Assembly (NCBI GenBank): GCA_965220485.1
Contig: OZ244832.1
Span: 481,943-545,942, forward strand
Length of the DNA stretch: 64,000 nucleotides
Direction of reading: 5' to 3'
From: Candidatus Aldehydirespirator sp.
GTDB taxonomy: Bacteria > Actinomycetota > Acidimicrobiia > Acidimicrobiales > Aldehydirespiratoraceae
The notes beneath the pieces were generated by a model. It saw nothing but the letters and a program-made list of their open reading frames with translations, searched no databases and was not told where the DNA came from. The translations under genes were made by a program, and so were the position numbers. The stretch's first letter is position 1. Each line of letters begins with the position of its first letter. Below, in pieces: positions 6,687 through 37,237 of the stretch.

Positions 6687-7066
6687 GACGCTTGCATCCC
6701 GACCCTCGGGCCGGCCATCGCACCGCCCGGGTGGGCGAGCTCATCAGGCGCATAGTCGCCGAGTCCATGGAGCAGCTGGATGACGACCGTCTGGCCATGG
6801 TGTCCGTGACGGGCGTGGACGTGGACCGGGACCTGCACCGAGCCGTTGTGTGGTTCACCTCGCTCGGCGATACCGAAGAGGGCGATGTCGGCATTGCCGA
6901 GGCCTTCGAGGAGCACGCCAGCAGGCTGCGACGCAGCGTTGGGGATCAGACTCGGTTGCGACGCACGCCGGAGTTGGTGTTCCGTCCGGACACTGTGCTG
7001 CGCTCAGCCGAGCGCATCGAGAGGCTCCTCGACGAGATGGCCGGTGACCCGGATCCCGATAGCTGA
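6671..7066 (+). CDS. rbfA: Ribosome-binding factor A
   Basis: RVGELIRRIVAE...DDRLAMVSVTGVDVDRDLHRAVVWF is typical RbfA, in the infB-rbfA-truB order. The start sits inside the tandem array. Confidence 0.85.
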   Translation: MTRRTRRLHPDPRAGHRTARVGELIRRIVAESMEQLDDDRLAMVSVTGVDVDRDLHRAVVWFTSLGDTEEGDVGIAEAFEEHASRLRRSVGDQTRLRRTPELVFRPDTVLRSAERIERLLDEMAGDPDPDS

Positions 7067-7080
7067 TGTCCCTCGGAGCG

Positions 7081-7222
7081 AGCGCGGGTGGGACTCACCT
7101 CCTCGCGGTGCAAATTCGTATTCCCCGCTCTTGTTCGCTGCGCTCACGGGCCGCTCGGGCCACGGCCTCGCTCAGCGCCCCTGCAAGTCCTCGATGACTC
7201 GCCGCCTATCCGCTCGGCCTCT
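7081..7222 (-). repeat. ~140-bp intergenic repeat family, copy 1 (inverted)
   Basis: Contains the core CCCGCTCTTGTTCGCTGCGCTCACGGGCCGCTCGGGCCACGGCCTCGCTCAG and the end CCTATCCGCTCGGCCTCT. Overlaps the truB start. Confidence 0.85.
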
Positions 7223-8102
7223 GGACGGGGTCGCGGTCATCGACAAGCCCGCGGGGTGGACGAGCCACGACGTGGTGGCCAAGGCGAGGGGGGTGTTAGG
7301 CACCCGAAAGGTGGGCCACAGCGGAACGCTCGATCCTGACGCCACCGGGGTGCTGGTGCTCGGCGTGGGCAGGGCCACACGGCTGCTGCGGTATGTCACC
7401 GAGCTTCCCAAGAGCTACGAAGCGGAGATAGTGCTCGGAACCGAGACCGACACCCTCGACTCGGCGGGACGGGTGACGGCGCGCCACGACATGGCCGGGG
7501 TGAGCGAGCAGCAGGCGCGCCAGGCTGCCGCGGCCCTGACTGGCGCCATCCTCCAGGTGCCGCCCATGGTCTCGGCGGTGAAGGTGGGAGGGAGAAGGCT
7601 TCACGCCCTCGCCCGCGCCGGCGTGGAAGTGGAGCGCGAAGCGCGACCGGTCACCGTCTATCGCTTCGACGTCGCCGGTGTGCCCGGCTGCGAGGGTGTG
7701 CTGCGCGCCGTGGTCGACTGCTCGTCGGGCACCTACGTGCGAGCGCTCGCCGCGGATCTGGGCCGGGCGCTCGGCGGAGGCGCCCACCTGCGGATGCTGC
7801 GCCGCACTGCGGTGGGGAGTTTCGGGCTCGCCGGCGCCCGCTCGGTGGAGTCGGCTGAGGTCCTGCCGATGTCTCGGGCCGTCAAGCACCTCGCGGGCGT
7901 GCGGGTGGACCCGATGGTGGCGGCCGAGGTGGCCAATGGTCGGGTGCTGGACCTCGTCCGCCTTGGTGTTGCCGACGCCCTGGAGGGGGGAACTGCGCCC
8001 GGGCCCTGGGCCGTCCACGACTCCGAAGGCGAACTGCTCGCCGTGTACGAGCGGTTCCGCAACGGCGCGAAGCCAACGGTGGTCGTGACGAGCGCGCCGT
8101 AG
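7194..8102 (+). CDS. truB: tRNA pseudouridine-55 synthase TruB
   Basis: VIDKPAGWTSHDVV...GHSGTLDPDATGVLVLGVG catalytic motif. The long ORF from 6846 reads through the repeat and is not credible. Confidence 0.9.
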   Translation: MTRRLSARPLDGVAVIDKPAGWTSHDVVAKARGVLGTRKVGHSGTLDPDATGVLVLGVGRATRLLRYVTELPKSYEAEIVLGTETDTLDSAGRVTARHDMAGVSEQQARQAAAALTGAILQVPPMVSAVKVGGRRLHALARAGVEVEREARPVTVYRFDVAGVPGCEGVLRAVVDCSSGTYVRALAADLGRALGGGAHLRMLRRTAVGSFGLAGARSVESAEVLPMSRAVKHLAGVRVDPMVAAEVANGRVLDLVRLGVADALEGGTAPGPWAVHDSEGELLAVYERFRNGAKPTVVVTSAP

Positions 8103-8234: not shown

Positions 8235-9182
8235 GTGGAGCTGCTGCATGATCGGCGCGATCAACTCCCCCCCATGGTGTCTGTCGCGGCTGCGATAGGC
8301 GTTTTTGACGGAGTGCACCTCGGCCACCAGGAGGTGCTGACCCGGGTCCGGCAGACCGCCGAGCGCCTAGGGGCGGCGTCGGCGGTCGTCACGTTCGACA
8401 CCCACCCGGCTTACGTGGTGCGGCCGGAGAACGCGCCGAAGCTGCTGACAACCCTCGAGCAGAAGCTGGAGCTGCTCGAGGCCCAAGGGCTCGACTACGG
8501 CTACGTGATCCAGTTCGACGAGGCTCGCGCCGGCACCAGGCCGGAGGAGTTCGTGGAGCAGGTCTTCCTCGACGCCCTCCACGCCCGGGCCGTGGTGGTG
8601 GGGGAGGACTTCCACTTCGGCAAGGGCCGCACCGGCAACGTCGCCGAACTGCAGCGCCTGGGACACCAGTGGGGTTTCGAGGTGGTCCCTCTCGAGCTCA
8701 TCCGCCACCGCCACGACGCCCGCGAACCGGTGTCGTCCACCGCGGTGCGCCGGGCTCTGGCCGGCGGCGATGTGGCTCGCGCCGCGGCCATGCTCGGGCG
8801 CTACTACGAAGTGCGCGGCACAGTCGTTCCCGGGGACCGGCGGGGGATGGTGGTCGGATTCCCCACCGCCAACGTGCCGGTTCCCAAGTTCATGGCCTGG
8901 CCGGCCGACGCGGTCTATGCGGGGTGGTGCACGCTGCCGGACGGCAGCCGGCGGGGCTGCGCCATCAACATCGGCCGCCGTCCCACGTTCTACGAGCACG
9001 CTCAGCAGTCCCTCTTGGAGGCCCACGTCATCGACTTCGACGGCGACCTGTACGGATGCGAGGTTCGGGTGGAGTTCGTTGACTTTCTGAGGAGCGAGCG
9101 CAAGTTCGAGGGCATGGAACACCTCTCTGCTCAGCTCGCCATCGATGTGGCCGACGCGCGGCAGCGGCTCGGGCTGGCGTAG
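8235..9182 (+). CDS. ribF: Bifunctional riboflavin kinase / FAD synthetase
   Basis: GVFDGVHLGHQ nucleotidyltransferase motif and a C-terminal riboflavin kinase domain (GFPTANV...EAHVIDFDGDLYG). Confidence 0.9.
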   Translation: MELLHDRRDQLPPMVSVAAAIGVFDGVHLGHQEVLTRVRQTAERLGAASAVVTFDTHPAYVVRPENAPKLLTTLEQKLELLEAQGLDYGYVIQFDEARAGTRPEEFVEQVFLDALHARAVVVGEDFHFGKGRTGNVAELQRLGHQWGFEVVPLELIRHRHDAREPVSSTAVRRALAGGDVARAAAMLGRYYEVRGTVVPGDRRGMVVGFPTANVPVPKFMAWPADAVYAGWCTLPDGSRRGCAINIGRRPTFYEHAQQSLLEAHVIDFDGDLYGCEVRVEFVDFLRSERKFEGMEHLSAQLAIDVADARQRLGLA

Positions 9183-9322
9183 AGGCCGAGCGGACAGGCC
9201 GCAGTTGCATGAGCATTTTGCGACGCGCTGAGCGAGGCCGTGGCCTGAGCGGCCCGTGAGCGCAGCGAACAAGAGCGGGAAACACGACACTGCACCGTGA
9301 GGCGGCATCACCTACCCGCGCG
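9180..9322 (+). repeat. ~140-bp intergenic repeat family, copy 2
   Basis: Starts at the ribF TAG (TAGAGGCCGAGCGGACAGGCCGC) and ends ...CATCACCTACCCGCGCG. Confidence 0.85.
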
Positions 9323-9367
9323 TGTTCTTGGCCAACCGGGTTCTGCAGTTCAGAAACGTTCTGAAGT

Positions 9368-11911
9368 TCAGACACTCAGGACTGCGGCGGCGAGGCGCTC
9401 GGACTCGCGGGCGCGCAGGGCGACGTTGATGTCGAGCCGCTCAAGGTGCTGGGCGACCTGTTTCGCTCCCTGGGGAAGCGGGTGCGCGGCCATGAAGTCG
9501 TGCACGTGGGAGGCCAGCTCGGCCTGGTCGAGCGCCACCACTCCTTCCAGCATCCGAGCCAGCGAGTAGTTGGTCGGGAAGATGCCGAGAAGGCGGTCCC
9601 AGTGCTCGGCCAGGAAGTCCCAGGCATCGGATCCGCAGCCGCGGTTGGCGAGGGCGCGGCGGATCAGGTAAGGGCCGTCCTGGGTGCGCACCGAGCCGTC
9701 GAGGGTGCCTTCCAGGATCGTGCGAACCAGCTCAGCGTCGGGAAAGTCGGCCAGGGCCGCTAGATGGCGCTGCTCGGTCTGGGGGTCCGACGCCGTCTCG
9801 AAACGCCGCCGGATCCGGGCGAAGTCTTCGGCGTCTCCATGGGCGGCCACCACGCCTAGGGCCGCCGCGGCCAGCGTGGCGTCCAGATGGTCGAGCCGCT
9901 CGCGGCACGCCGCGATCGTGGCGGGGTGATCTGCGGTCGCGCCCCGCAGCCTCAGCAGCGTCGCCCGTAGCTCGCCGGTGCGCTCGTCTTCGGTGCCGCT
10001 GGGCGGCGAGTCGAGGCCGACGGTGGCCGCAGCCACCTCGGAGGCGGCCACGACGAGCTCGCCGAAGCGCTGAGCTGCGTCGCCGTGCAGCAGTCTGCGG
10101 AGGTGGGCCACGGGGCCGGCGATGGCTTGCCACACGGTGAGGTCGCGCTCGTCGGTGAATCCTCTCAGCACAAAGTCGAGGAAGTCCGGCCCGTCGAGGC
10201 TGCCGGCCAGGGTCGCGGCCCAGGCGTCGTCGACGAGGCCGTGGCGCTCCTCGGCGCTGCGGTCGCCGGGTCCCGCGGCCGCGACAGCCGCGAGCGCCGC
10301 GGCGTCCGGGTCGTCGCGGTAGAAGCCGGAGGCGCCGCCGTTCACCGTCACCGCCTCGGTTGCTGCGACCGTCAGGGTCAGGCGGGGCCGGTCAAGCAGG
10401 AGTCGTAGTTCGCGCCGGCTGTCTTCGCGTCCCTGGACTCGCAAGCGCAGCGGGACCACCCAGCTGCGTTCGTCCGCTCGCTCGGGGTCCAGCGTGAAAT
10501 GGCGCTGGGACACTTCGAGGCCGTGCTCGGTCGCGGCCGCGCTCACCGCCGGATATCCGCCCTGGTAGATCCAGTGCTCCATGATCTGTCCCACGGGCTG
10601 GCCCGACGCGTCGGCGAGCGAGGCCCACAGGTCCGCGGTGACCGTGTTGGCGTAGGCGTGCCTTCGCAAGTAGAGGCGCACCCCGGCCCGGAACGCCTCG
10701 GGGCTGACATACTGCTCCAGCATGCGGACCAGGGCCGCGCCCTTCTCGTAGGTGATCACGTCGAACATGTCCTCGGCCTCGGCGGGGGAGTGCACCGGGT
10801 ACTCCACCGCCCGGGTGGTGCCGAGGGCGTCAGTAGAGAGCGCCGAGGACCGGCTTCGGCAGAACGTCGACCACACCCGCCAGTCGGGCCGGTAGGCGTC
10901 GGTGCAGGCCGTTTCCATGAACGTGGCGAAGGCCTCGTTGAGCCAGATCCCCTCCCACCAGGCCATGGTCACGAGGTCCCCGAACCACATGTGAGCCAGC
11001 TCGTGGTTGATCACCTCGGCCACCCGCTGCAGCTCGGGCTGGCTGGCAGAGCCGGGGTCCACTAGCAGCAGCACCTCCCGGAAGGTGACGCAGCCCAGGT
11101 TCTCCATGGCACCGAACGCGAAGTCGGGGATGGCGACTAGATCGAGCTTGTCCGACGGATAGGGCAGGCCGTAGTAGTCGGAGTACCACTCCAGGGCGTG
11201 GGCCGCGACATCGAGGGCGAAGCCAGTCTGGTCGCCGCGGCCGGGCCGGTGGATGACTCGCACGGGCACGCCGTCGCAGTCGATCGCCTCGGTGGCCTCC
11301 AGCGGTCCTACCACGAAGGCCACCAGGTACGTCGACATCGGCATGGTGGTGGCGAATATGACTCTGACGCGTCCGTCGCCCAGCGGCTCGCGGCCGGTCT
11401 CCGCGGTGTTGGACACCGCCAGCAGGCTCTCGTCCACCACCAGCGTCGCCGCGAAGGTGGCCTTGAGGGCGGGCTCGTCGAAGCAGGGGAAGGCTCGTCG
11501 GGCGTCGGTTGACTCGAACTGGGTGGTGGCGATGGTGTGCGTGGCGCCGGCGTCGTCGGAGTAGGTGGAGCGGTAGAAGCCGTGCAGTTGGTCGTTGAGC
11601 ACACCGCTGAAGGAGATGTCCAGCCGGGCCGATCCCGCTGCGAACCGGCCGGCCTCGTCGTGGTGGCTCAGCGTCAGGCGCTCGGACTCCTCATGGAGCT
11701 CGAAGCCGAGCTTGACGGCCTCACCGGATGCTGCGACGAGCTGTGCGCTGAAGATGTTCAGGTCCGCCGCGTTCAGCACGATCGAGCCGACCGGCTCTGT
11801 GACGTCGATGTCGATGGCGACGTGTCCGGCGAAGGTCGCGGCCTCGAGGTCGGGCTCCAGCTCGATGGCGTAGTGCCGGGGCGCAACGCCGGTGGGCAGT
11901 CTCGGACTCAT
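9368..11911 (-). CDS. pepN: Aminopeptidase N (M1 family zinc metallopeptidase)
   Basis: GAMEN exopeptidase motif and HELAHMWFGDLVT...WLNEAF (HEXXH-E18) in an 847-aa ORF. Confidence 0.9.
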   Translation of the reverse strand: MSPRLPTGVAPRHYAIELEPDLEAATFAGHVAIDIDVTEPVGSIVLNAADLNIFSAQLVAASGEAVKLGFELHEESERLTLSHHDEAGRFAAGSARLDISFSGVLNDQLHGFYRSTYSDDAGATHTIATTQFESTDARRAFPCFDEPALKATFAATLVVDESLLAVSNTAETGREPLGDGRVRVIFATTMPMSTYLVAFVVGPLEATEAIDCDGVPVRVIHRPGRGDQTGFALDVAAHALEWYSDYYGLPYPSDKLDLVAIPDFAFGAMENLGCVTFREVLLLVDPGSASQPELQRVAEVINHELAHMWFGDLVTMAWWEGIWLNEAFATFMETACTDAYRPDWRVWSTFCRSRSSALSTDALGTTRAVEYPVHSPAEAEDMFDVITYEKGAALVRMLEQYVSPEAFRAGVRLYLRRHAYANTVTADLWASLADASGQPVGQIMEHWIYQGGYPAVSAAATEHGLEVSQRHFTLDPERADERSWVVPLRLRVQGREDSRRELRLLLDRPRLTLTVAATEAVTVNGGASGFYRDDPDAAALAAVAAAGPGDRSAEERHGLVDDAWAATLAGSLDGPDFLDFVLRGFTDERDLTVWQAIAGPVAHLRRLLHGDAAQRFGELVVAASEVAAATVGLDSPPSGTEDERTGELRATLLRLRGATADHPATIAACRERLDHLDATLAAAALGVVAAHGDAEDFARIRRRFETASDPQTEQRHLAALADFPDAELVRTILEGTLDGSVRTQDGPYLIRRALANRGCGSDAWDFLAEHWDRLLGIFPTNYSLARMLEGVVALDQAELASHVHDFMAAHPLPQGAKQVAQHLERLDINVALRARESERLAAAVLSV

Positions 11912-14225: not shown

Positions 14226-15218
14226 GTGGAACCTGCGCTCGATGTGGTGGGTGTCGGCAACGCCATCGTGGATGTGATCGCCACCGTGCCGGACTCGTTC
14301 ATTCGCGACTACGGGCTGGTGAAGGGAGCCATGACCCTGGTCAGCGCGGAGAGATCGGCTGAGCTGTACGACGCCATGCCGACGGGGATCGCGGCTTCCG
14401 GCGGGTCCGCGGCCAACACGGTGGCCGGCGTCGCCTCCTTCGGCGGTCGGGCTGCATTCATCGGCAAGGTGCGCGACGACCAACTCGGCGAAGTGTTCGT
14501 CCACGACATCCGGGCGACGGGCGTCGCCTTCGGCGTGCCACAGTCGCCGGACGGTCCTCCCACCGCCCGCTGTCTGGTGCAGGTAACCCCCGACGCCGAG
14601 CGCACGATGAACACTTTCCTGGGCACGGCTGCGCTGCTGGGTCCCCGCGATGTGGACACCGCCCTGGTTGCCTCGGCTGCCATCACTTACTGCGAGGGCT
14701 ATCTGTGGGACGTGCAGGTGGCCAAGGACGCCATCCGCTTGGCCATGGCGGCAGCCGGGGACGCCGGCAGGACGGTGGCGCTGGCTTTGAGCGACTCGTA
14801 TTGCGTGAAGCGCCACCGCGACGAGTGGCTCGCGTTGATCGACGACAGCGTCGACGTGGTGTTCGCGAACGAGGCAGAAGTGTGCGCCCTCCACGAGACC
14901 GACGACTTCGGCGCGGCACGGAACCGCACAGCCGAGATGGCCCGCACGGTGGTGGTCACCCGCGGCGCCCGCGGCTCGGTGGTGGCGCAGGGCTCGACAC
15001 TGGAGACGGTGCCGGCGGCCGTGGTGGCGGAGGTCGTCGATGCCACCGGAGCCGGTGATCTGTATGCCGCGGGATTCCTGTGGGGTCTTGGCCGGGGCGC
15101 GCCCCCGGCGCGCTGCGCCGAGTTGGGCAGCCTGGCCGCGGCAGAGGTCATCAGCCATGTCGGCGCCCGTCCCTTGGCATCGCTGTCAAGGCTCGCAGCG
15201 GCCGCTGGGCTTGCCTAG
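14226..15218 (+). CDS. PfkB-family carbohydrate/adenosine kinase
   Basis: VGVGNAIVD N-terminus, GGSAANT, and the C-terminal DATGAGDLYAAGF PfkB signature. Confidence 0.85.
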   Translation: MEPALDVVGVGNAIVDVIATVPDSFIRDYGLVKGAMTLVSAERSAELYDAMPTGIAASGGSAANTVAGVASFGGRAAFIGKVRDDQLGEVFVHDIRATGVAFGVPQSPDGPPTARCLVQVTPDAERTMNTFLGTAALLGPRDVDTALVASAAITYCEGYLWDVQVAKDAIRLAMAAAGDAGRTVALALSDSYCVKRHRDEWLALIDDSVDVVFANEAEVCALHETDDFGAARNRTAEMARTVVVTRGARGSVVAQGSTLETVPAAVVAEVVDATGAGDLYAAGFLWGLGRGAPPARCAELGSLAAAEVISHVGARPLASLSRLAAAAGLA

Positions 15219-15357
15219 AGGCCGAGCCGATAGGCCGCGTTTCGCGATGTGCTCGCAAGGCACTGAGCGAGGCCGTGGCCCGAGCGGCCCGTGAGCGCAG
15301 CGAACAAGAGCGGGAAGCACCACGCTGCGCGGCGAGGCAGCATCACCTACCCGCGCT
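15216..15357 (+). repeat. ~140-bp intergenic repeat family, copy 3
   Basis: Starts at the kinase TAG (TAGAGGCCGAGCCGATAGGCCGC). The core is identical to the other copies. Confidence 0.85.
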
Positions 15358-15375
15358 GTCTCTTAGGCTCGGCTG

Positions 15376-15819
15376 GTGGCGACCATTCGGGTCTCGACTG
15401 TCGTGCCCGCGGAGCCCGCGGTGGTGTGGGAGGACCTCCGCCACATCGCTCGCCACGTCGACTGGATGAGCGATGCCGAGTCGATCCGCTTCCTGAGCGA
15501 AGCCACACAGGGCATCGGCGTGCGCTTCGAGTGCGCTACGCGAGTCGGCCCGATTCGGCTCATCGACCGGATGGAGGTCACCGAGTGGAGCGACAGCCAG
15601 GCGATGGGAATCCGACATCGCGGGGTGGTCTCGGGCACGGGACAGTTCAGGCTCACGGCGCTCCCTGCGTCCGGCGGCGAGATCCACACGCAGTTCGAGT
15701 GGACCGAGAAGCTGCAGTTCCCGTGGTGGATGGGCGGAGCGGTCGGTGCAGTGCTGGCCCGTCGCATGCTTCGCGCCGTCTGGAAGCGCAACCTGAGCAG
15801 ATTCGTCGCCCGTTTCTGA
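15376..15819 (+). CDS. SRPBCC (START/polyketide cyclase-like) family protein
   Basis: 147 aa with the typical SRPBCC N-terminus (IRVSTVVPAEPAVVWEDL) and overall pattern. Confidence 0.75.
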   Translation: MATIRVSTVVPAEPAVVWEDLRHIARHVDWMSDAESIRFLSEATQGIGVRFECATRVGPIRLIDRMEVTEWSDSQAMGIRHRGVVSGTGQFRLTALPASGGEIHTQFEWTEKLQFPWWMGGAVGAVLARRMLRAVWKRNLSRFVARF

Positions 15820-15861: not shown

Positions 15862-15903
15862 AGAGGCCTAGCGGATGCGACACGGTGGCACCTAGCCGCG
15901 CTG
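15862..15903 (+). repeat. 42-bp core-less mini copy of the ~140-bp repeat
   Basis: AGAGGCCTAGCGGATGCGAC...CACCTAGCCGCGCTG matches both ends of copy 3 but lacks the ~100-bp interior. Confidence 0.6.
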
Positions 15904-15984
15904 TCTCTTGTTGCGGCTGTGGCTGTCAGCAGAATCGCAGATTGCGTCTCCGTCGCCGGAATGGTGGATTCCGGTCAGAGCAGC

Positions 15985-16967: not shown

Positions 16968-17807
16968 ATGGGCTACAGATGCTTCGAGGTGGAGGAGTCC
17001 GGGCGTATAGCGCACCTGCGCCTCAGCCGCGGCGAGCAATTGAACACGATGATCCCGGAGTTCTGGTCGGAGTTGCCGGCCATCGTGGACGAGATCTCCG
17101 ACGCGGGACGGGCGCGGGTGATCGTGCTCTCGTCGGAGGGACGCCACTTCTGCGCGGGCATGGACCTGTCGGTCTTCTCGGACGACTCGAGTCTCCATCC
17201 GGAGTCGGGCGAGATCGGCCGGCGCCGGGCGAACCTCAGGCTCAACGTGCTGCACCTGCAGCGTGCGTTCACCGCGCTCGAGCAGGCCAGGATGCCGGTG
17301 CTGGCCGCAATCCAGGGCGCATGCGTCGGCGGTGCAGTAGATCTCGTGACCGCGGCCGACTGCCGCTACGCCACCGCCGACGCCTGGTTCTCGATCCATG
17401 AGATCAACATCGGGATGACCGCCGACGTAGGAACCCTGCAGCGCCTGCCCAAGCTGATTCCCTCCGGAGTGGCCCGCGAGTACGCGTACACAGGCCGGCG
17501 CCTGCACGCGAAGCGGGCACTGGAACTGGGACTGGTCAACGAGGTCTTCGAGGACCAAGGCTCGATGATGGACGCGGTGACGGATATCGCCGCCGAGATC
17601 GCCGCCAAGTCGCCGCTGGCGATACACGGCACCAAGGAGGCGATCAACTACAGCCGGGACCACACCACCGAGGAATCGCTCCGGCACATCGCGCTGTGGC
17701 AGTCGGGGATGTTCCACCCTGATGACCTGGAGGAGTCGTTCAGGGCCGAGTCCGAAGGCCGCCTCCCGTCCTACGAGGACCTGCCCGAGGTGCGCCGAGG
17801 ACTGTGA
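16968..17807 (+). CDS. Enoyl-CoA hydratase/isomerase (crotonase) family protein
   Basis: RVIVLSSEGRHFCAGMDL and AAIQGACVGGAVDL crotonase motifs. The ATG at 16968 gives a typical N-terminus. Confidence 0.9.
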   Translation: MGYRCFEVEESGRIAHLRLSRGEQLNTMIPEFWSELPAIVDEISDAGRARVIVLSSEGRHFCAGMDLSVFSDDSSLHPESGEIGRRRANLRLNVLHLQRAFTALEQARMPVLAAIQGACVGGAVDLVTAADCRYATADAWFSIHEINIGMTADVGTLQRLPKLIPSGVAREYAYTGRRLHAKRALELGLVNEVFEDQGSMMDAVTDIAAEIAAKSPLAIHGTKEAINYSRDHTTEESLRHIALWQSGMFHPDDLEESFRAESEGRLPSYEDLPEVRRGL

Positions 17808-17950
17808 GAGGCCGAGCGGATAGGCCGCGACTCACGTACGAGATCAGCGGGTCGTTGAGCGAGGCCGTGGCCCGAGCGGCCCGTGAGCGCAGCGAACAAG
17901 AGCGGGAAGCACAACCCCTCATCGCGAGGTGCTCATCACCTATCCGCGTG
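17805..17950 (+). repeat. ~140-bp intergenic repeat family, copy 4
   Basis: Starts at the hydratase TGA (TGAGAGGCCGAGCGGATAGGCCGC). Confidence 0.85.
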
Positions 17951-17987
17951 GCTGCTGAGTCGCGCCGCGCCGCGCCGCGGGGGTTGA

Positions 17988-31609: not shown

Positions 31610-32854
31610 ATGCCTCAGGGTAGCCTTGTGGCTCTGATGGCCCTTTCTGATCCGCTCGTCGATGTCCGCCCCCTGGGCTCCGACGATTCCGAACCGGTCC
31701 CCGCCGGGTCCGGCTCCTTCGCCGACCTCGGATTGTGCGACGAGTTCGTGGTGGCGCTGGCCGCTCGGGGAATCACCGCTCCGTTCCCCATCCAGACGCT
31801 CACCATTCCCGATGCACTGGCCGGCCGCGACGTGTGCGGCAAGGCCAAGACGGGCTCGGGCAAGACGCTCGCCTTCGGCCTGCCCGTGCTGCAGCGGCTG
31901 CCCCGGTCCAAGCCTGGCTCGCCCACCGGCCTGGTTCTCGCTCCCACCCGTGAGCTGGCCAACCAGATCTGCGACGAGCTGGCCGCGCCGGCCGCCGCGG
32001 TCCGTCGGCGGGTGCTCGCCACCTACGGCGGCGCTCCGATCGACAAGCAGATCGCCAGGCTGCGCGACGGCGTCGACTTGGTGGTGGCCACACCGGGCCG
32101 GATGATCGACCTGATCGACCGGGGCGCGGTGAGCCTGCGCGCCGTGCGCCACGTGGTGGTGGACGAGGCCGACCGGATGGCTGACATGGGCTTCCTGCCC
32201 CAGGTCGAGTGGGTCCTGCGCAACGTCGAGAGCGGGCATCAGACCCTGCTGTTCTCCGCCACCCTCGACGGTGCCGTCGACTCGCTGATCAGGCGCTACC
32301 AGAGCAACCCGTCGATGCACTCTGTGGCTCCCCGCGAGATCACCGTGGCCGAGATGGTCCATCACTTCGTGGGCGTCCACAAGCTCGACAAGGTCAAGGT
32401 GGCCGCGGCCATAGCCAACTCGGTGGGGCGCACGCTGATGTTCACCCGCACCAAGATTGCGGCCGACCGCTTGGCCCGCGACCTGCGCCGCGAGGGCGTG
32501 AAGGCCGCTCCGATACACGGCGACCTGCGCCAGGTGGCCCGGGAGAAGTCCCTGCGGCAGTTCATCGCCGGAGAGCTGCCGGTGCTGGTGGCGACCGATG
32601 TGGCCGCCCGCGGGATCCACGTCGACGATGTGGATGTGGTGGTGCAGTACGACCCGCCCTCGGATCACAAGACCTATGTGCACCGGGCCGGGCGCACGGC
32701 CCGGGCCGGCGAGTCCGGCGTGGTGGTGACCCTGTCGCTGTGGGACGAGGAGCTCGACGTGAAGAGGATCCAGCGGCGCCTCGAGCTCGACGAGCCGATC
32801 GTGGAGATGTTCTCCAACGACGCCCGCCTGCGGGATCTGGTTCACGGGATCTAG
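31610..32854 (+). CDS. DEAD-box ATP-dependent RNA helicase
   Basis: Q-motif FPIQ, AKTGSGKT, DEAD (VVDEADRM), SAT, and HRAGRTARAG. Confidence 0.9.
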   Translation: MPQGSLVALMALSDPLVDVRPLGSDDSEPVPAGSGSFADLGLCDEFVVALAARGITAPFPIQTLTIPDALAGRDVCGKAKTGSGKTLAFGLPVLQRLPRSKPGSPTGLVLAPTRELANQICDELAAPAAAVRRRVLATYGGAPIDKQIARLRDGVDLVVATPGRMIDLIDRGAVSLRAVRHVVVDEADRMADMGFLPQVEWVLRNVESGHQTLLFSATLDGAVDSLIRRYQSNPSMHSVAPREITVAEMVHHFVGVHKLDKVKVAAAIANSVGRTLMFTRTKIAADRLARDLRREGVKAAPIHGDLRQVAREKSLRQFIAGELPVLVATDVAARGIHVDDVDVVVQYDPPSDHKTYVHRAGRTARAGESGVVVTLSLWDEELDVKRIQRRLELDEPIVEMFSNDARLRDLVHGI

Positions 32855-32988
32855 AGGTCGAGCGGATGGGCCGCGTCTGATGAGGACTTCGTGAGGCGCT
32901 GAGCGAGGCCGTGGCCCGAGCGGCCCGTGAGTGCAGCGAACAAGAGCGGGAAACGCGTCGCTGACGCGAGCTGACGGCCGCCGCGCTG
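32852..32988 (+). repeat. ~140-bp intergenic repeat family, copy 5
   Basis: Starts at the helicase TAG (TAGAGGTCGAGCGGATGGGCCGC). The core is conserved. Confidence 0.8.
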
Positions 32989-33077
32989 GCCGGGCGGGCG
33001 GATCTGCGCAGATCTCACCGTTGGCTGGGCGGAGCGCGCTTTGTGCTCTGCTGGCCTAGACTGGTCGGCGACCCCTA

Positions 33078-34595: not shown

Positions 34596-35937
34596 CGCTG
34601 CCGGCGCAGGGCACGCCGCCGATCCAGCGTCCGCCGATCTGGCCTCCGCCGATCCGGGCGCCGAGGATCTGGCCTCCGCCGATCCGGGCTTTGGGGATCC
34701 GGGCTTTGGGCATCCGGGCTCCGGGGAACCGGCCTCCGAGGCGGACGTGCCCTCCACGGGCAGGCTGCACGCCCACACCCGGGCGATCCGAGCCGGGCGG
34801 GACGACAACCAGAACGCGCTGGCCCCGATCCTGTGGGCCACGTCCACGTTCACCGCGGCCAGCGTCTCGGAGGCCCGCGACCTGGCGGTGGACACCCACT
34901 CGACGCGTTTCTACACCCGCTACGGCAACCCGACCGTGAAGGCGTTCGAGGACGCGGTGGCCGACCTTGAGGGCACCGAGTCGGCCCGGGCGTTCGCCTC
35001 GGGCATGGGCGCGCTGAGCGCCATCGTGCTGGGGCTGTGCTCCAGCGGTGATCATATCGTCGCCCAGCGCCAACTCTATGGCGGCACGCAACTGCTGCTG
35101 CAGACGGCGTGTCCCCGCTTTGGCATCGGCGTGAGCTTCGTGGACGGCACCGAGCCGGACGCCTTCGCCGATGCCGTCATTCCGGGGCGCACGATGCTGG
35201 TGATCGCGGAGTCGCCCGCCAACCCGAAGCTGGCCGTGGTCGACCTGGCCGAGCTGGGGGCGATAGCGGGGCCGATGACCGTGGTGGACTCGACGTTCGC
35301 CACGCCGCTGGCGCAGAGGCCCGCCGAGTACGGGGTCGATCTGGTGGTGCATTCGGCCACCAAGGCCATCGCCGGCCACAACGACGCAACCATCGGAGTG
35401 GTGGCCGGAAGCGAGGAGCTGCTGGCGTGGCTCTGGAACTACGCCGTGCTCCACGGCGCGGCGGCCTCCCCGTTCGACGCCTTGAACGCCCTGAGGGGCA
35501 TCCGGACGCTGGCGGTGCGCCTGCGCCAGCAGACCGACACCGCCACCGCGCTGGCCGGGGCGCTGGAGGGCCATCCGGCGGTGGAGTCGGTCCACTATCC
35601 GGGTCTGGAGTCTCATCCCCAGCACGAGCTGGCGGCCAAGCAGATGGAGCTGGCCGGCGGTCTCGTCACCTTCGACCTGAGAGGCGGGTACGAGGCTGGT
35701 GAAGCCTTCATGGAGGAGGTTCGGGTGGTGCGGTTGGCCACCTCGCTGGGCGGACCGGAGAGCATCGTCACCCATCCGGCGTCCACCACCCATGTGAGCT
35801 TGCTCCCGCAGGAGCTCGAGGCGTTGTGCATCGGCGCGGGCACGGTCCGGTTCTCGGCCGGGCTGGAGCACACCGACGATGTGATCGCCGACGTGATCGC
35901 TGCGCTGGACCGGTTGGACGGGATCGTTGCTTCTTAG
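34588..35937 (+). CDS. Cys/Met-metabolism PLP-dependent enzyme (O-acyl-homoserine sulfhydrylase / cystathionine gamma-synthase family)
   Basis: YTRYGNPT, SGMGA, and the VVHSATKAIAGHND PLP-lysine motif. It overlaps the metX 3' end and has a repetitive acidic N-terminal extension. Confidence 0.85.
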   Translation: MPDAAGAGHAADPASADLASADPGAEDLASADPGFGDPGFGHPGSGEPASEADVPSTGRLHAHTRAIRAGRDDNQNALAPILWATSTFTAASVSEARDLAVDTHSTRFYTRYGNPTVKAFEDAVADLEGTESARAFASGMGALSAIVLGLCSSGDHIVAQRQLYGGTQLLLQTACPRFGIGVSFVDGTEPDAFADAVIPGRTMLVIAESPANPKLAVVDLAELGAIAGPMTVVDSTFATPLAQRPAEYGVDLVVHSATKAIAGHNDATIGVVAGSEELLAWLWNYAVLHGAAASPFDALNALRGIRTLAVRLRQQTDTATALAGALEGHPAVESVHYPGLESHPQHELAAKQMELAGGLVTFDLRGGYEAGEAFMEEVRVVRLATSLGGPESIVTHPASTTHVSLLPQELEALCIGAGTVRFSAGLEHTDDVIADVIAALDRLDGIVAS

Positions 35938-35939
35938 AG

Positions 35940-36083
35940 CGAGCGCAAACCAGTTGCGAGCGCCTCGCGGCACGGCGTTGCCTCTCCCGCTCTTGTTCGC
36001 TGCGCTCACGGGCCGCTCGGGCCACGGCCTCGCTCCGCACCTTTCGGAGTAGCCAGGTGATTCGTGCCTATTCGCTCGGCCTC
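35940..36083 (-). repeat. ~140-bp intergenic repeat family, copy 6 (inverted)
   Basis: Core CCCGCTCTTGTTCGCTGCGCTCACGGGCCGCTCGGGCCACGGCCTCGCT and end CCTATTCGCTCGGCCTCT. Confidence 0.8.
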
Positions 36084-36107
36084 TTCGGCCCGGTAGCGTC
36101 GGGAGTC

Positions 36108-36714: not shown

Positions 36715-36951
36715 TTGGCGGACGTGGCCGAGGGTTTCGATGCCGACGCGATGATCGAGCGCTTCCGCGAGCGCGCCGCGGGCGTGAAGCACCGCAACCT
36801 CCCGCCGGTGGCTGGCGAGGAGCGGCGGCACTTCCTGGAGCAGGCCCAGCTGGACTTCCAGGACTTCGCCATGATCGGCGACGCCGAGGCCACGCTCGAG
36901 GACGGCGTCCTTCGTCTGAGCATCGATCTGCGCCCGCCGGAGGCTCGCTGA
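36715..36951 (+). CDS. Hypothetical 78-aa protein
   Basis: TTG start immediately after the preceding stop. The sequence looks globular (AEGFDADAMIERFRERAAGV...). No family recognised. Confidence 0.4.
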   Translation: MADVAEGFDADAMIERFRERAAGVKHRNLPPVAGEERRHFLEQAQLDFQDFAMIGDAEATLEDGVLRLSIDLRPPEAR

Positions 36952-37032
36952 GAGGCTGAGCGGATGGTGCGCCATTGACGAGAGTCATTGCGAGGCGCCG
37001 AGCGAGGCCGTGGCCTGAGCGGCCCGTGAGTA
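36949..37032 (+). repeat. ~140-bp intergenic repeat family, copy 7 (3'-truncated)
   Basis: Starts at a TGA (TGAGAGGCTGAGCGGATGG) and stops within the core after ...GGCCCGTGAG. Confidence 0.7.
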
Positions 37033-37161
37033 GCCCGATGTCAACCGAAGTCTCCCAAATCTGCATGGATTTTGTCGATAGGTGACGGCTTTCTCTACAG
37101 ATTTGGTGGTGCTCTAAGGGCGTGGCCGTCGGGGCCTGGCCTCGGTAGGATCGTCAAACCC

Positions 37162-37234
37162 GCGGACGTAGCTCAGTTGGTAGAGCGCAACCTTGCCAAG
37201 GTTGAGGTCGCCGGTTCGAGGCCGGTCGTCCGCT
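37162..37234 (+). tRNA. tRNA-Gly (anticodon GCC)
   Basis: Manual cloverleaf: acceptor GCGGACG/CGTCCGC, D-arm GCTC..GAGC, anticodon arm CAACC-TTGCCAA-GGTTG, and a T-arm with TTCGA. Confidence 0.9.
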
Positions 37235-37237
37235 CGG

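Follow-up and report, generated by a model that had tools for sequence, protein, structure and literature searches.

A MITE family with a near-invariant core at gene ends in Acidimicrobiia

The 64,000-nt stretch of DNA analysed here, called the window, contains a short repeat that is present in seven copies plus one mini copy. We consider it probable that these copies belong to a family of non-autonomous MITEs of about 146 nt, with imperfect inverted ends and a 2-3-bp duplication of a preferred NAG, whose survivors gather at gene ends and whose core is cis-acting for mobilisation. For the insertion of these elements we infer a DDE-type mechanism. Below we describe the family, its ends and its effects on host genes, and weigh the readings that compete for its conserved centre.

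Identification and distribution of the family

The seven copies proposed in the initial annotation were recovered by three kinds of search. A 29-mer of the core matched six sites of the window with at most three mismatches, against none in 100 shuffles; the 16-mer GAGCGAGGCCGTGGCC matched exactly at 7/7 of the sites given earlier; and nhmmer, run with a profile of 39 full-length copies, found precisely the same seven sites in the window. The full element is about 146 nt long (AGGCC...CTCT). It has no coding capacity, and a protein-coding core was ruled out by indels in the arms and by invariance of the core at all three codon positions. On the sense strand of the element, stops occur in two frames within 30 nt (TAG at +14 and TGA at +28).

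The genome census gave 156 hits at 104 loci in at least 25 MAG species of Acidimicrobiia, and the metagenome census gave 157 hits in 120 loci, related copies being present on more than 120 metagenome contigs. Carriers include the complete chromosomes OZ244866.1, OY759762.1 and OZ242033.1. Many of the carrier MAGs apparently come from sponges, sponge metagenomes are among the samples with the family, and the hosts are uncultured Acidimicrobiia, probably associated with sponges. The plasmid, phage and viral-contig collections contained no match to the element. We estimate that the family makes up 1-2% of these uncultured genomes, extrapolating the window's density of roughly one copy per 9 kb and the additional non-seed copies that the fetched loci contained. 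Because the copies change gene ends, gene callers will mis-set starts and stops around them; assemblies will tend to break at them.

Derivatives comprise mini forms, short forms, tandem 103-nt arrays and end remnants. No longer form that shares these ends and carries a transposase turned up in about 1.7 Mb of loci, and searches for lone 5' motifs, for short forms with a distant 3' repeat and for 5'/3' pairs 0.4-5 kb apart returned chance hits only.

Table 1 Features of the element copies in the window. Refined element limits exclude the flanking 3-mers.
Feature	Position	Strand	Flanks	Remarks
Copy 1	7075-7220	-	CTC 7072-7074; CTG 7221-7223	Full length; antisense to rbfA and truB; nhmmer E=5e-35
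Candidate truB start in copy 1	7194-7196	+		ATG in frame with truB; translation MTRRLSARPL-DGVAVIDKP
Copy 2	9183-9328	+	TAG 9180-9182 (ribF stop); TGG 9329-9331	Full length; nhmmer E=9e-38
5' terminal motif of copy 2, AGAGGCCGAGCGGA	9181-9194	+		Within 5' inverted repeat
Core of copy 2	9230-9279	+		Near-invariant
3' inverted repeat of copy 2, CACCTACCCGCGCGTGTTCT	9309-9328	+		Terminal-helix pairing
Copy 3	15219-15363	+	TAG 15216-15218 (PfkB/adenosine kinase stop); TAG 15364-15366	Full length; nhmmer
Mini copy (eighth)	15862-15908	+		5' and 3' inverted repeats only, no core
Copy 4	17809-17956	+	GAG 17806-17808; GAG 17957-17959	Full length; nhmmer, Pfam
Copy 5	32855-32991	+	TAG 32852-32854 (DEAD helicase stop)	5' repeat, arm and core intact; 3' arm diverged; nhmmer alignment to model positions 1-121
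Copy 6	35936-36082	-	CTT 35933-35935; CTT 36083-36085	Full length; nhmmer
Remnant of native Cys/Met PLP 3' end	36086-36096	+		CG GCC CGG TAG; S-A-R-stop without the insert
Copy 7	36953-37030	+		5' repeat, arm and first half of core
Foreign module in copy 7 core	37031-37106	+		76 nt, after CCCGTGAG

Inverted ends, flanking repeat and empty sites

The inverted ends reported earlier are real, and longer than first given: the 5' end reads AGAGGCCGAGCGGATAGG and the reverse complement of the 3' end reads AGAGCGAGCGCGGATAGG, imperfect repeats that share 16 positions with two 2-nt indels. In the 39-copy alignment, 79-88% of the terminal-helix cells are paired, with few compensatory changes.

Outside these ends we found a short direct repeat. 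Among 56 unique full-length copies, the flanking NA is identical on both sides in 27 (9.8 expected, z 5.5) and the flanking NAG in 22 (8.1 expected), and a replicate set gave a flank match in 24 of 62 copies against 9.1 expected, with a permutation maximum of 17 (n=500). This repeat is a target-site duplication of 2-3 bp with statistical support, matching in only 40-48% of copies. Perfect pairs in the window are TAG/TAG, GAG/GAG and CTT/CTT. The favoured flank is NAG (CCNAG/AGGCC, the slash marking the junction), and in two occupied/empty pairs, L101/L063 and L005/L069, the empty site carries no NAG.

Since the fetched genome loci were too diverged to be aligned with the window, empty sites for the window copies were found through protein look-ups. 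At the ribF site, relatives with 73-92% identical RibF lack the element, and in two of them 16-19 nt lie between the ribF stop and the convergent stop of an M1 peptidase gene. The rbfA TGA overlaps the truB ATG in relatives, with no element there. At the PfkB site, three relatives (kinase 82-94% identical) have the two genes 0-34 nt apart and no element, and the mini copy is missing from the matching spacer of one relative (L229). Among syntenic loci, 12 further pairs of occupied and unoccupied sites were found. On the strength of the inverted ends, the short flanking direct repeat and the absence from close relatives, we regard the element as a MITE-like insertion.

The same comparison of orthologous loci, which the initial annotation had recommended, places the ribF and PfkB copies on native stop codons. 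For copy 2 this follows from the length of RibF, which is 314-315 aa in nearly all relatives. PfkB/adenosine kinase has 330 aa in most homologues, and copy 3, judged from sequence comparison, likewise sits on the native stop; the gene downstream of it starts at GTG 15376.

Effects on host genes and stop codons at the junctions

Copies of the element affect four genes of the window. In this window alone, a Cys/Met PLP enzyme (Pfam) is trimmed by three residues and the start of truB has likely been replaced. The current stop of the PLP enzyme is TAG 35935-35937; its closest homologues end in ...GIVASSAR and the window protein in ...GIVAS, while the former SAR-TAG codons persist at 36086-36096, where the reconstructed end agrees with the C-termini of the homologues. 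Copy 6 creates the new TAG and costs the enzyme the residues SAR, an outcome foretold ahead of reading the homologues. Copy 1 inserted after codon 3 of truB (inside codon 4), and in the window translation the truB frame stays open through the copy. The ATG inside it is likely the replacement start, as suggested by comparing the window translation (Table 1) with the sequence of a relative's TruB, MPPDGVAVVDKP. Copy 7 had been described as truncated; a copy is present there, but it is interrupted and not merely truncated, and beyond the foreign module TGGTGCTCT-AAG (37107-37118) resembles the 3' end of the element.

All five forward copies begin on a stop codon, as had been claimed (TAG at 9180, 15216 and 32852; TGA at 17805 and 36949), and Pfam identified RibF, PfkB, enoyl-CoA hydratase and DEAD helicase among the upstream genes. 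At copy 4, the first GAG flank overlaps TGA 17805-17807, which ends the enoyl-CoA hydratase gene, and TGA 36949-36951 before copy 7 ends a 110-codon ORF. Overlooked at that stage was that both reverse copies likewise lie near stops of + strand genes: the TAG of the PLP enzyme straddles the end of copy 6, and the rbfA stop TGA 7064-7066 lies 8 nt from copy 1. Across the family, a stop sits on the 5' junction in 33/84 and 26/63 copies (39-41%) and, on the other strand, on the 3' junction in 10/26 and 9/31 copies (29-38%). A crude null that assumes uniform NAG gives 11-16%.

Two ideas had been put forward for this association. That the element targets stop codons holds only in part, the preferred flank being NAG and both termini behaving alike; a residual excess of junction stops, about 2-3 times the crude null, remains. 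That the element supplies the stop is right for some copies, such as copy 6, where the T of TAG 35935-35937 belongs to the flanking repeat and the AG to the element. Both termini read AG(AG), which next to the NAG repeat preserves a TAG, TGA or TAA or makes a new one; stops are in use where T, TG or TA precedes the junction, and the same is seen at the other terminus on the other strand. Because NAG is preferred and the pattern recurs at the other terminus, the stop association does not arise from the 5' end alone; it reflects the geometry of both ends and the survival of harmless insertions. Stop usage near elements (TGA 55, TAG 34, TAA 6) is no different from that of the remaining genes (304/171/30), and the family has therefore left the choice of stop codon unchanged.

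These features suggest how the distribution could arise. Insertion would duplicate the preferred NAG target by 2-3 bp, and AG(AG) termini beside the duplicated NAG would give the junctions T/AG, TG/A or TA/A after a preceding T, TG or TA. Where the element lands on a stop codon or directly ahead of one, the stop would thus be kept or replaced at once, with further interior stops in two frames behind it. Selection would act as a filter: insertions elsewhere in genes would be lost, and survivors would accumulate exactly at gene ends in either orientation. Ends that rebuild stop codons are a neat and largely ordinary survival route for such elements, and the family offers a clean example of a mobile element that is harmless at gene ends, its termini regenerating stops in either orientation.

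Conservation of the core and alternative explanations

The core is much better conserved than the arms, as the initial annotation had noted from the window, and this holds in about 150 copies: conservation per position is 95-100% except at positions 84 and 93. Model position 84 takes all four bases (C 76%, A 16%). The 5' terminal motif AGAGGCCGAGCGGA is at least 90% conserved in the same set. Positions 82-100 played no part in fetching the genome loci and are nevertheless 96-100% conserved, except for 84, 93 (87% A) and 100 (93% G), so the conservation of the core is not an ascertainment effect. Conservation of at least 90% is also seen for the upstream core and the 5' motif in metagenome copies that were fetched by the opposite half of the core. 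At sites shared between genomes, the core and 5' motif are 94-98% identical and the arms just 61-64%; the core tail stands at 94%, the 5' motif at 95% and the flanking genes at 81-94%.

It had been argued that this conservation speaks for function rather than MITE decay. The core is indeed near-invariant, but the hallmarks of a MITE are present all the same, and on its terminal inverted repeats, its flanking duplication and its presence or absence between relatives the family remains one. MITEs usually conserve their inverted repeats more strongly than their centre, the opposite of what is seen here, and under a purely selfish model the contrast between core and arms at shared sites needs re-insertion or gene conversion. 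Read directly, the core includes both halves of the 5' terminal motif, GAGGCCG and CCGAGCGG, and it ends in the terminus-like AAGAGCGGG. The 48-nt core would most likely be the cis-acting sequence that active copies must retain, and it probably holds internal binding sites for the mobilising protein, which we propose because both halves of the terminal motif are repeated there. Also counting against the MITE reading are the absence of a transposase-bearing long form from about 1.7 Mb of loci, the partial flank match together with the two empty sites that have no NAG, the stop excess and the sense bias. Sharply bounded, found in at least 25 species and set between drifting arms, the near-invariant 48-base centre makes a concrete candidate for a site bound by a protein or an RNA.

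A role as a 3'-UTR module, a terminator or an sRNA, also raised in the initial annotation, drew no support from Rfam, covariation, folding, terminator scans or orientation. Rfam 15 over the whole window returned three tRNAs and nothing in the element copies, and permissive scans of two copies gave best E-values of 1-2.7, far under the gathering score. A hammerhead-like CUGAUGA...GAAAC in copy 5 was considered and dropped, as the stretch is variable in other copies and matched no model. Single copies folded with z from -3.7 to +0.3, and against mononucleotide shuffles the local folding of the arms had mean z of -0.05 and -0.28 and that of the core +0.2. Arm hairpins are not conserved (54-62% of cells paired). 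A named four-helix structure had 80.9% of cells paired against 80.0% in shuffles, its core hairpin never varying and hence uninformative, and a covariation score of 0.121 against 0.110 (11/500); the RNAalifold covariation term was -0.06. The covariance check recommended earlier thus found only weak covariation, in the terminal repeats and not outside them, whether by RNAalifold, by per-column pairing tests or in the four-helix structure. Promoter and terminator consensus sequences had no consistent match in the copies.

These results bear on the strongest alternative, in which the MITE spread and the host then kept the core and the 5' motif as a cis module at hundreds of gene 3' ends, with selection on each resident copy. 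Such a module might be bound as RNA by a protein or sRNA, might govern processing or stability, or might act on termination and re-initiation, with GAGG directly after the stop. We think this rather unlikely. A core that is conserved at 95-100% over at least 25 species, yet varies freely at a single position in its middle, is what such a module would look like, as is the retention of the core tail and 5' motif at shared sites where the arms diverge; at one of those sites (L044/L093), however, the arms belong to different subfamilies, which suggests turnover rather than conservation in place. Copies lie in sense more often than in antisense (58:20 and 37:15), and divergent gene pairs rarely enclose one (11 and 5 copies), but where the neighbouring genes run in the same direction about one copy in four is antisense, and the bias may come partly from the availability of NAG versus CTN in stop contexts, an estimate drawn from stop usage. 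Both termini are equally flanked by stops, which makes the position unspecific for a sense RNA, the covariation, folding and Rfam results above give the module no footing, and housekeeping genes of close relatives manage without the element. In its boldest form, the core and the GAGG-bearing 5' motif would be a domesticated cis-regulatory module at the 3' ends of hundreds of Acidimicrobiia genes, read by one protein or RNA; this we judge unlikely. If true, transposition would have wired a genome-wide post-transcriptional or termination-linked regulon, with conservation at shared sites and sense bias as its signature.

It is improbable that the core, as a recombination hot spot or attachment-type site, is kept uniform mainly by gene conversion among hundreds of copies and serves other mobile DNA as a landing pad, with no selection for a function of its own, although several rearrangements point that way. 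A module of 76-85 nt cuts the core at one point, after CCCGTGAG, in five independent loci (copy 7 and L030, L066, L094 and L101), with a 16-26-nt stretch of the core repeated beyond it. An IS1380-family element whose own ends differ lies on element termini in three loci, much as QMITE2 of Coxiella burnetii is a hot spot for IS1111 (PMC5896051). Arms have been swapped between subfamilies at the L044/L093 site, duplicated cores occur, and arrays of tandem 103-106-nt units are present in a few loci (L094, L088, L052, L033), most copies being single. Yet conversion alone leaves the free variation at position 84 beside fixed neighbours unaccounted for, and likewise the sharp conservation boundaries, and the analysis demonstrated no conversion tract.

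It is very improbable that the element is REP/REPIN-like or derived from IS200/IS605, with an HUH (Y1) transposase moving it in single-stranded form and NAG as the cleavage or target motif: the high copy number, the location outside genes at their ends, the strand bias, a fixed NAG by both ends, the two empty sites without NAG and the many copies without a 3' inverted repeat would fit it, but the variable N matches between flanks far above chance, a sign that target DNA was duplicated, the ends form inverted repeats and not subterminal hairpins, the arm hairpins are no more stable than shuffled sequence, and there is no GTAG-type REP unit.

Comparison with known systems

The closest likeness is to QMITE1 and QMITE2 of Coxiella burnetii, small non-coding inverted-repeat elements with many copies (PMC5896051). 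Each functional gene affected by them is struck at its 3' end with an overlap of 1-50 bp, some copies give C-terminal residues or the stop codon, and one of the families is a hot spot for another IS (PMC5896051). An invariant core is not reported for them, nor are termini able to restore stops in either orientation (PMC5896051). The present element resembles the QMITEs in being small, non-coding and multicopy, with inverted repeats and a place at gene 3' ends; it differs in that there is no sequence relation and that their host is gammaproteobacterial.

Correia elements (CREE/NEMIS) of Neisseria are MITEs of about 100-150 bp with inverted repeats and a TA target duplication. Hundreds of copies lie beside genes and are co-transcribed with them, and an RNA hairpin that is a target of RNase III, promoters and an internal IHF binding site are documented. 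That internal site is a precedent for a conserved MITE centre; the target, by contrast, is TA there and NAG here, the analysis brought out no comparable RNA hairpin or promoter in the present element, and the sequences are unrelated.

REP/BIME sequences and REPINs with RAYT are extragenic, number hundreds of copies, lie mostly just past stops, between convergent or co-directional genes, and are targets for other IS. REPs are GC-rich palindromes of 20-40 nt that carry a GTAG-type motif and insert without duplicating their target. The present element, in contrast, is 146 nt long with inverted ends, a flanking duplication and a conserved non-palindromic centre, and thus has neither the palindromic unit nor the duplication-free insertion of REP/REPIN.

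MIRUs of Mycobacterium are intercistronic, with ends that overlap the upstream stop and sometimes the downstream start, and are mainly tandem minisatellites without inverted ends. They share with the present element an actinobacterial host, intercistronic position, stop overlap and tandem units (the 103-nt arrays in L094), but the present copies are as a rule single and dispersed, with inverted repeats, head-to-tail tandems are not the normal state, and there is no sequence relation. The literature that we searched held no description of this family, but its kind is already known: with its small size and many copies, inverted repeats, target duplication, non-coding sequence and insertion polymorphism, it is a MITE.

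A repeat family of Acidimicrobiia

The seven-copy repeat family described in the initial annotation is real. The 29-nt core was found at six window sites with at most three mismatches versus none in 100 shuffles, the 16-mer from the core start matched exactly at all seven reported sites, and nhmmer, with a profile of 39 full-length copies, recovered exactly these seven. An eighth, mini copy lies 43 nt past the stop of an SRPBCC gene (15376-15819), and the closest relative carries none in the matching spacer. Every window copy, eight in all, falls within 7-37 kb, and the final 27 kb is free of them.

Beyond the window, we searched one-genome-per-species bacterial assemblies with an exact 31-mer of the core, and metagenomes with a 38-mer from the other core half. 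The 31-mer was present in more than 104 loci; all 80 of the matches listed with titles were Acidimicrobiia, many labelled Candidatus Aldehydirespirator or Acidimicrobiaceae, and these first 80 loci came from at least 25 different assemblies. The 38-mer was present in more than 120 metagenome contigs, and a search of viral contigs, phages and plasmids gave no match. The profile gave 156 copies in the fetched genome loci and 157 in those from metagenomes. Judged by isolate names, several core-bearing genomes presumably come from sponge metagenomes. The window RibF is 92% identical to its best database protein, and by such sequence comparison the window itself is related to element-carrying genomes.

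Coordinates of element copies and of other mobile DNA (L numbers, fetched loci)
Feature	Position	Remark
Copy 1	7075-7220(-)	
Copy 2	9183-9328(+)	
Copy 3	15219-15363(+)	
Copy 4	17809-17956(+)	
Copy 5	32855-32991(+)	
Copy 6	35936-36082(-)	
Copy 7	36953-37030(+)	
Mini copy	15862-15908(+)	two terminal repeats only; eighth window copy
Core-interrupting module	window 37031-37106	also L030, L066, L094, L101
IS1380-family element	L058:1247-2888; L003:113-1760; L004:5653-7328; L096:5938-7587	

Anatomy and conservation of the element

The element begins with AGAGGCCGAGCGGATAGG, and the reverse complement of its 3' end reads AGAGCGAGCGCGGATAGG. The inverted ends noticed earlier are thus present but longer than first drawn, so that copy 2 reaches 9328 and not 9322. 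In the long form, the 5' and 3' inverted repeats enclose a ~50-nt core with a variable arm on each side; the arm between the 5' repeat and the core measures ~35 nt, or ~25 nt in one subfamily. Short forms end a few bases past the core (~103-108 nt), some forms continue from the core into a direct copy of the 5' motif, and mini forms (two terminal repeats only) and lone 5' ends also occur. In L094 (4835-5290), L088, L052 and L033, a 103-106-nt unit made of 5' repeat, arm and core forms tandem arrays; tandem units and tandemly duplicated cores were seen in these loci and in L115 and L128.

Conservation reaches 90% or more in the 5' motif AGAGGCCGAGCG. Core positions 53-100 of the model are 95-100% conserved, except 93 (87% A), 100 (93% G) and the variable position 84, where every base occurs (C 76%, A 16%, G 5%, T 3%). 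The arms reach only 35-70%, in agreement with the original remark that the core is far more conserved. This is not an ascertainment effect, since positions 82-100 lay outside the search pattern for the genome loci, and metagenome copies fetched with the downstream core half keep the upstream core and the 5' motif at 90% or more. By direct reading, the core holds GAGGCCG and CCGAGCGG a few bases apart, each being one half of the 5' terminal motif, and the end of the core, AAGAGCGGGAA, resembles the terminus minus 6 nt. Lone 5' ends are common (a stop, AGAGGCCGAGCGG and a few bases), and several apparently empty sites (L094, L098 and L060, occupied in L088, L036 and L019) keep GAG(G/A)CCGA immediately behind the stop or in its vicinity; decay of the element seems to spare the 5' end.

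Flanking repeats and empty sites

The two bases that border the element, one preceding AGAGG (5' end) and one following CTCT (3' end), coincide far above chance. Among 56 unique full-length copies, NA was identical at both flanks in 27 and NAG in 22, where permutation predicts 9.8 and 8.1, and the match was replicated in the metagenome set (24/62 versus 9.1 expected). Window flank pairs include TAG/TAG, GAG/GAG and CTT/CTT, and the 5' flank consensus is C C N A G before AGGCC.

Orthologous loci without the element were found at the ribF, rbfA/truB and PfkB sites. Four relatives whose RibF is 73-92% identical have rbfA and truB overlapping or directly adjacent, and their ribF stop lies 16-19 nt from the convergent M1 peptidase stop or overlaps the GTP cyclohydrolase II start, which leaves no room for copies 1 and 2; nhmmer found no element at these two sites of the four relatives. 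The PfkB kinase is followed by the next gene after 0-34 nt in three relatives (kinase 82-94% identical), versus 157 nt in the window. Among syntenic pairs of fetched loci, twelve copies face a site without a detectable copy in the other species.

At L231:1890-1920, a relative's locus, the sequence reads TAG, 22 nt, TAG, where the window (15216-15366) reads TAG, element, TAG, with an identical downstream flank. The 22 nt contain a 10-nt reverse match to the core; they may be what a deletion left behind, or else represent the ancestral state. Between copy 2 and the M1 peptidase, where the relatives' spacer is just 16-19 nt, the window has two direct 16-18-nt repeats (9340-9373), each partly palindromic (GTTCTGCAGTTCAGAAAC / GTTCTGAAGTTCAGAC), the second containing the M1 peptidase stop (9368-9370, minus strand).

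Why the ends fall on stop codons

All five forward copies start on a stop codon, as initially reported (TAG at 9180, 15216 and 32852; TGA at 17805 and 36949), and Pfam confirmed RibF, the PfkB kinase, the enoyl-CoA hydratase and the DEAD helicase as upstream genes. We then called coding frames from GC periodicity. In 33 of 84 copies (39%) with a gene reading toward the element, the distance from the start of the stop to the A of AGAGG is 2, 1 or 0 nt; another 12 have the stop 7-9 nt upstream, and about 24 have it inside the element, most commonly as TGA at +28 or TAG at +14. At the 3' end, 26 genes converge on the element from the other strand, and 10 of them (38%) have their stop 1-2 nt before AGAGCG. 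In the metagenome set, the stop falls on the junction in 26/63 cases at the 5' end and 9/31 at the 3' end. Stops therefore abut both ends at like rates, and the association is symmetric rather than special to the 5' end.

This symmetry arises because the termini begin AG(AG) beside a duplicated NAG. The 5' junction reads T-AG, T + GAG or T + AAG, and the 3' junction on the other strand CTT-AG, CTG-A or CTA-A (hyphens marking the junction). For a crude null, we counted every NAG site in a stretch that opens 15 nt ahead of each stop and closes at the next gene, or after 100 nt at most; of these sites, 11% (pooled) to 16% (per gene) fall on the stop. The observed 39-41% is about 2-3 times this value, and the true excess may be smaller, since the gene calls probably overestimate spacer lengths. 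Of the suggestion that the element targets stop codons, the placement of its ends on stops stands, but this would come from ends and target duplication that rebuild stops, plus loss of harmful insertions. Gene calls of L001-L104 and the window gave TGA 60%, TAG ~34% and TAA 6%; the TAG share seems high for a 68% G+C actinobacterium and is equal near and away from elements.

Effects on window genes

Copies 2 and 3 sit exactly at the native stop position, as nearly all relatives have a RibF of 314-315 aa and a kinase of 330 aa. Element-free orthologues carry TGA or TAA after the same last ribF codon, and TAA or TAG after the kinase. That the element supplies the stop is true of copy 6, for which no stop link had been drawn. 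The insertion point of this reverse copy is 9 nt short of the native stop in the gene for a Cys/Met-metabolism PLP enzyme. The present stop of this gene (TAG, 35935-35937) consists of the T of the flanking CTT and AG of the element. Removing copy 6 and one CTT in silico restores ...GCT TCT TCG GCC CGG TAG; the closest homologues end ...GIVASSAR, the window protein ends ...GIVAS, and the old end codons persist at 36086-36096.

Copy 1, also reverse, follows the third codon of truB, whose ATG overlaps the rbfA TGA in relatives; it parts the native truB start from the rest of the gene (7066-7226). The truB frame is open through copy 1, and an in-frame ATG inside it (7194-7196), probably the new truB start, would give MTRRLSARPL-DGVAVIDKP instead of MPP-DGVAVVDKP.

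Readings of the conserved core

We compared ten syntenic locus pairs with a copy at the same site in both. The 5' motif (95% identity) and the unascertained core tail (94%) exceed the first arm (64%) and the region after the core (61%), with flanking genes at 81-94%; L044 and L093, from two species, differ in arm subfamily at a shared site. These data point to one of three processes: selection of the core in place, homogenisation of copies by conversion, or re-use of insertion sites.

Between same-direction genes, sense and antisense copies number 58:20 in genomes and 37:15 in metagenomes, and copies between divergent genes are few; both observations favour some strand-specific constraint. From stop usage, we estimate that part of the sense bias stems from stop contexts offering NAG (TAG, TGAG, TAAG) rather than CTN (CTGA, CTAA, CTTAG). 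From conservation and orientation bias, a host function of the core is possible; the initial argument for function over MITE decay is borne out in its observation of core conservation, but the family is nonetheless a MITE.

The reading as a 3'-UTR module, terminator or sRNA gained no support: no Rfam family matches the element, single-copy folds were not consistently better than shuffles, neither the arms nor the core folded better than shuffled sequence, RNAalifold gave almost no covariation, with a few compensatory changes in the terminal repeats only, and no terminator or promoter consensus recurs across copies. A four-helix structure that we specified has 80.9% of its cells paired versus 80.0% in shuffles; for the arm hairpins the share is only 54-62%, and the core hairpin, with zero variation among copies, is neutral as to structure.

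Other mobile DNA and known parallels

A 76-85-nt module (TAGCCC.A.GTCAA...CAAATCTG...GACGG.TTTCTCTAC.GATTT.GG) interrupts the core at one identical point, after CCCGTGAG, in five loci, and in four of these a 16-26-nt stretch is repeated before the core continues. In L094 the module, in its 85-nt form, lies within one unit of the array, and it also occurs inside a MITE with IS1380-type ends in L046. The window module lies ~55 nt upstream of tRNA-Gly (37162-37235); the module may carry a promoter. A 1.65-kb IS1380-family insertion sequence, encoding a 440-aa DDE transposase (PF13701), has ends reading CCTGGATCCACCGG and 4-5-bp duplications (CTTAG, TTTAG, CTCAG, TTAG), and three of its four loci have it placed exactly at a terminus of the repeat element.

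The element is a new family of MITE; a search of about 1.7 Mb of locus sequence gave no longer element with the same ends. MITEs of Coxiella overlap gene 3' ends by 1-50 bp, donate C-termini or stops, and are also hot spots for other IS elements (PMC5896051). Our element resembles them in overlapping the 3' ends of genes, and what is unusual in it is the sharply bounded invariant centre and the symmetric, stop-rebuilding ends.
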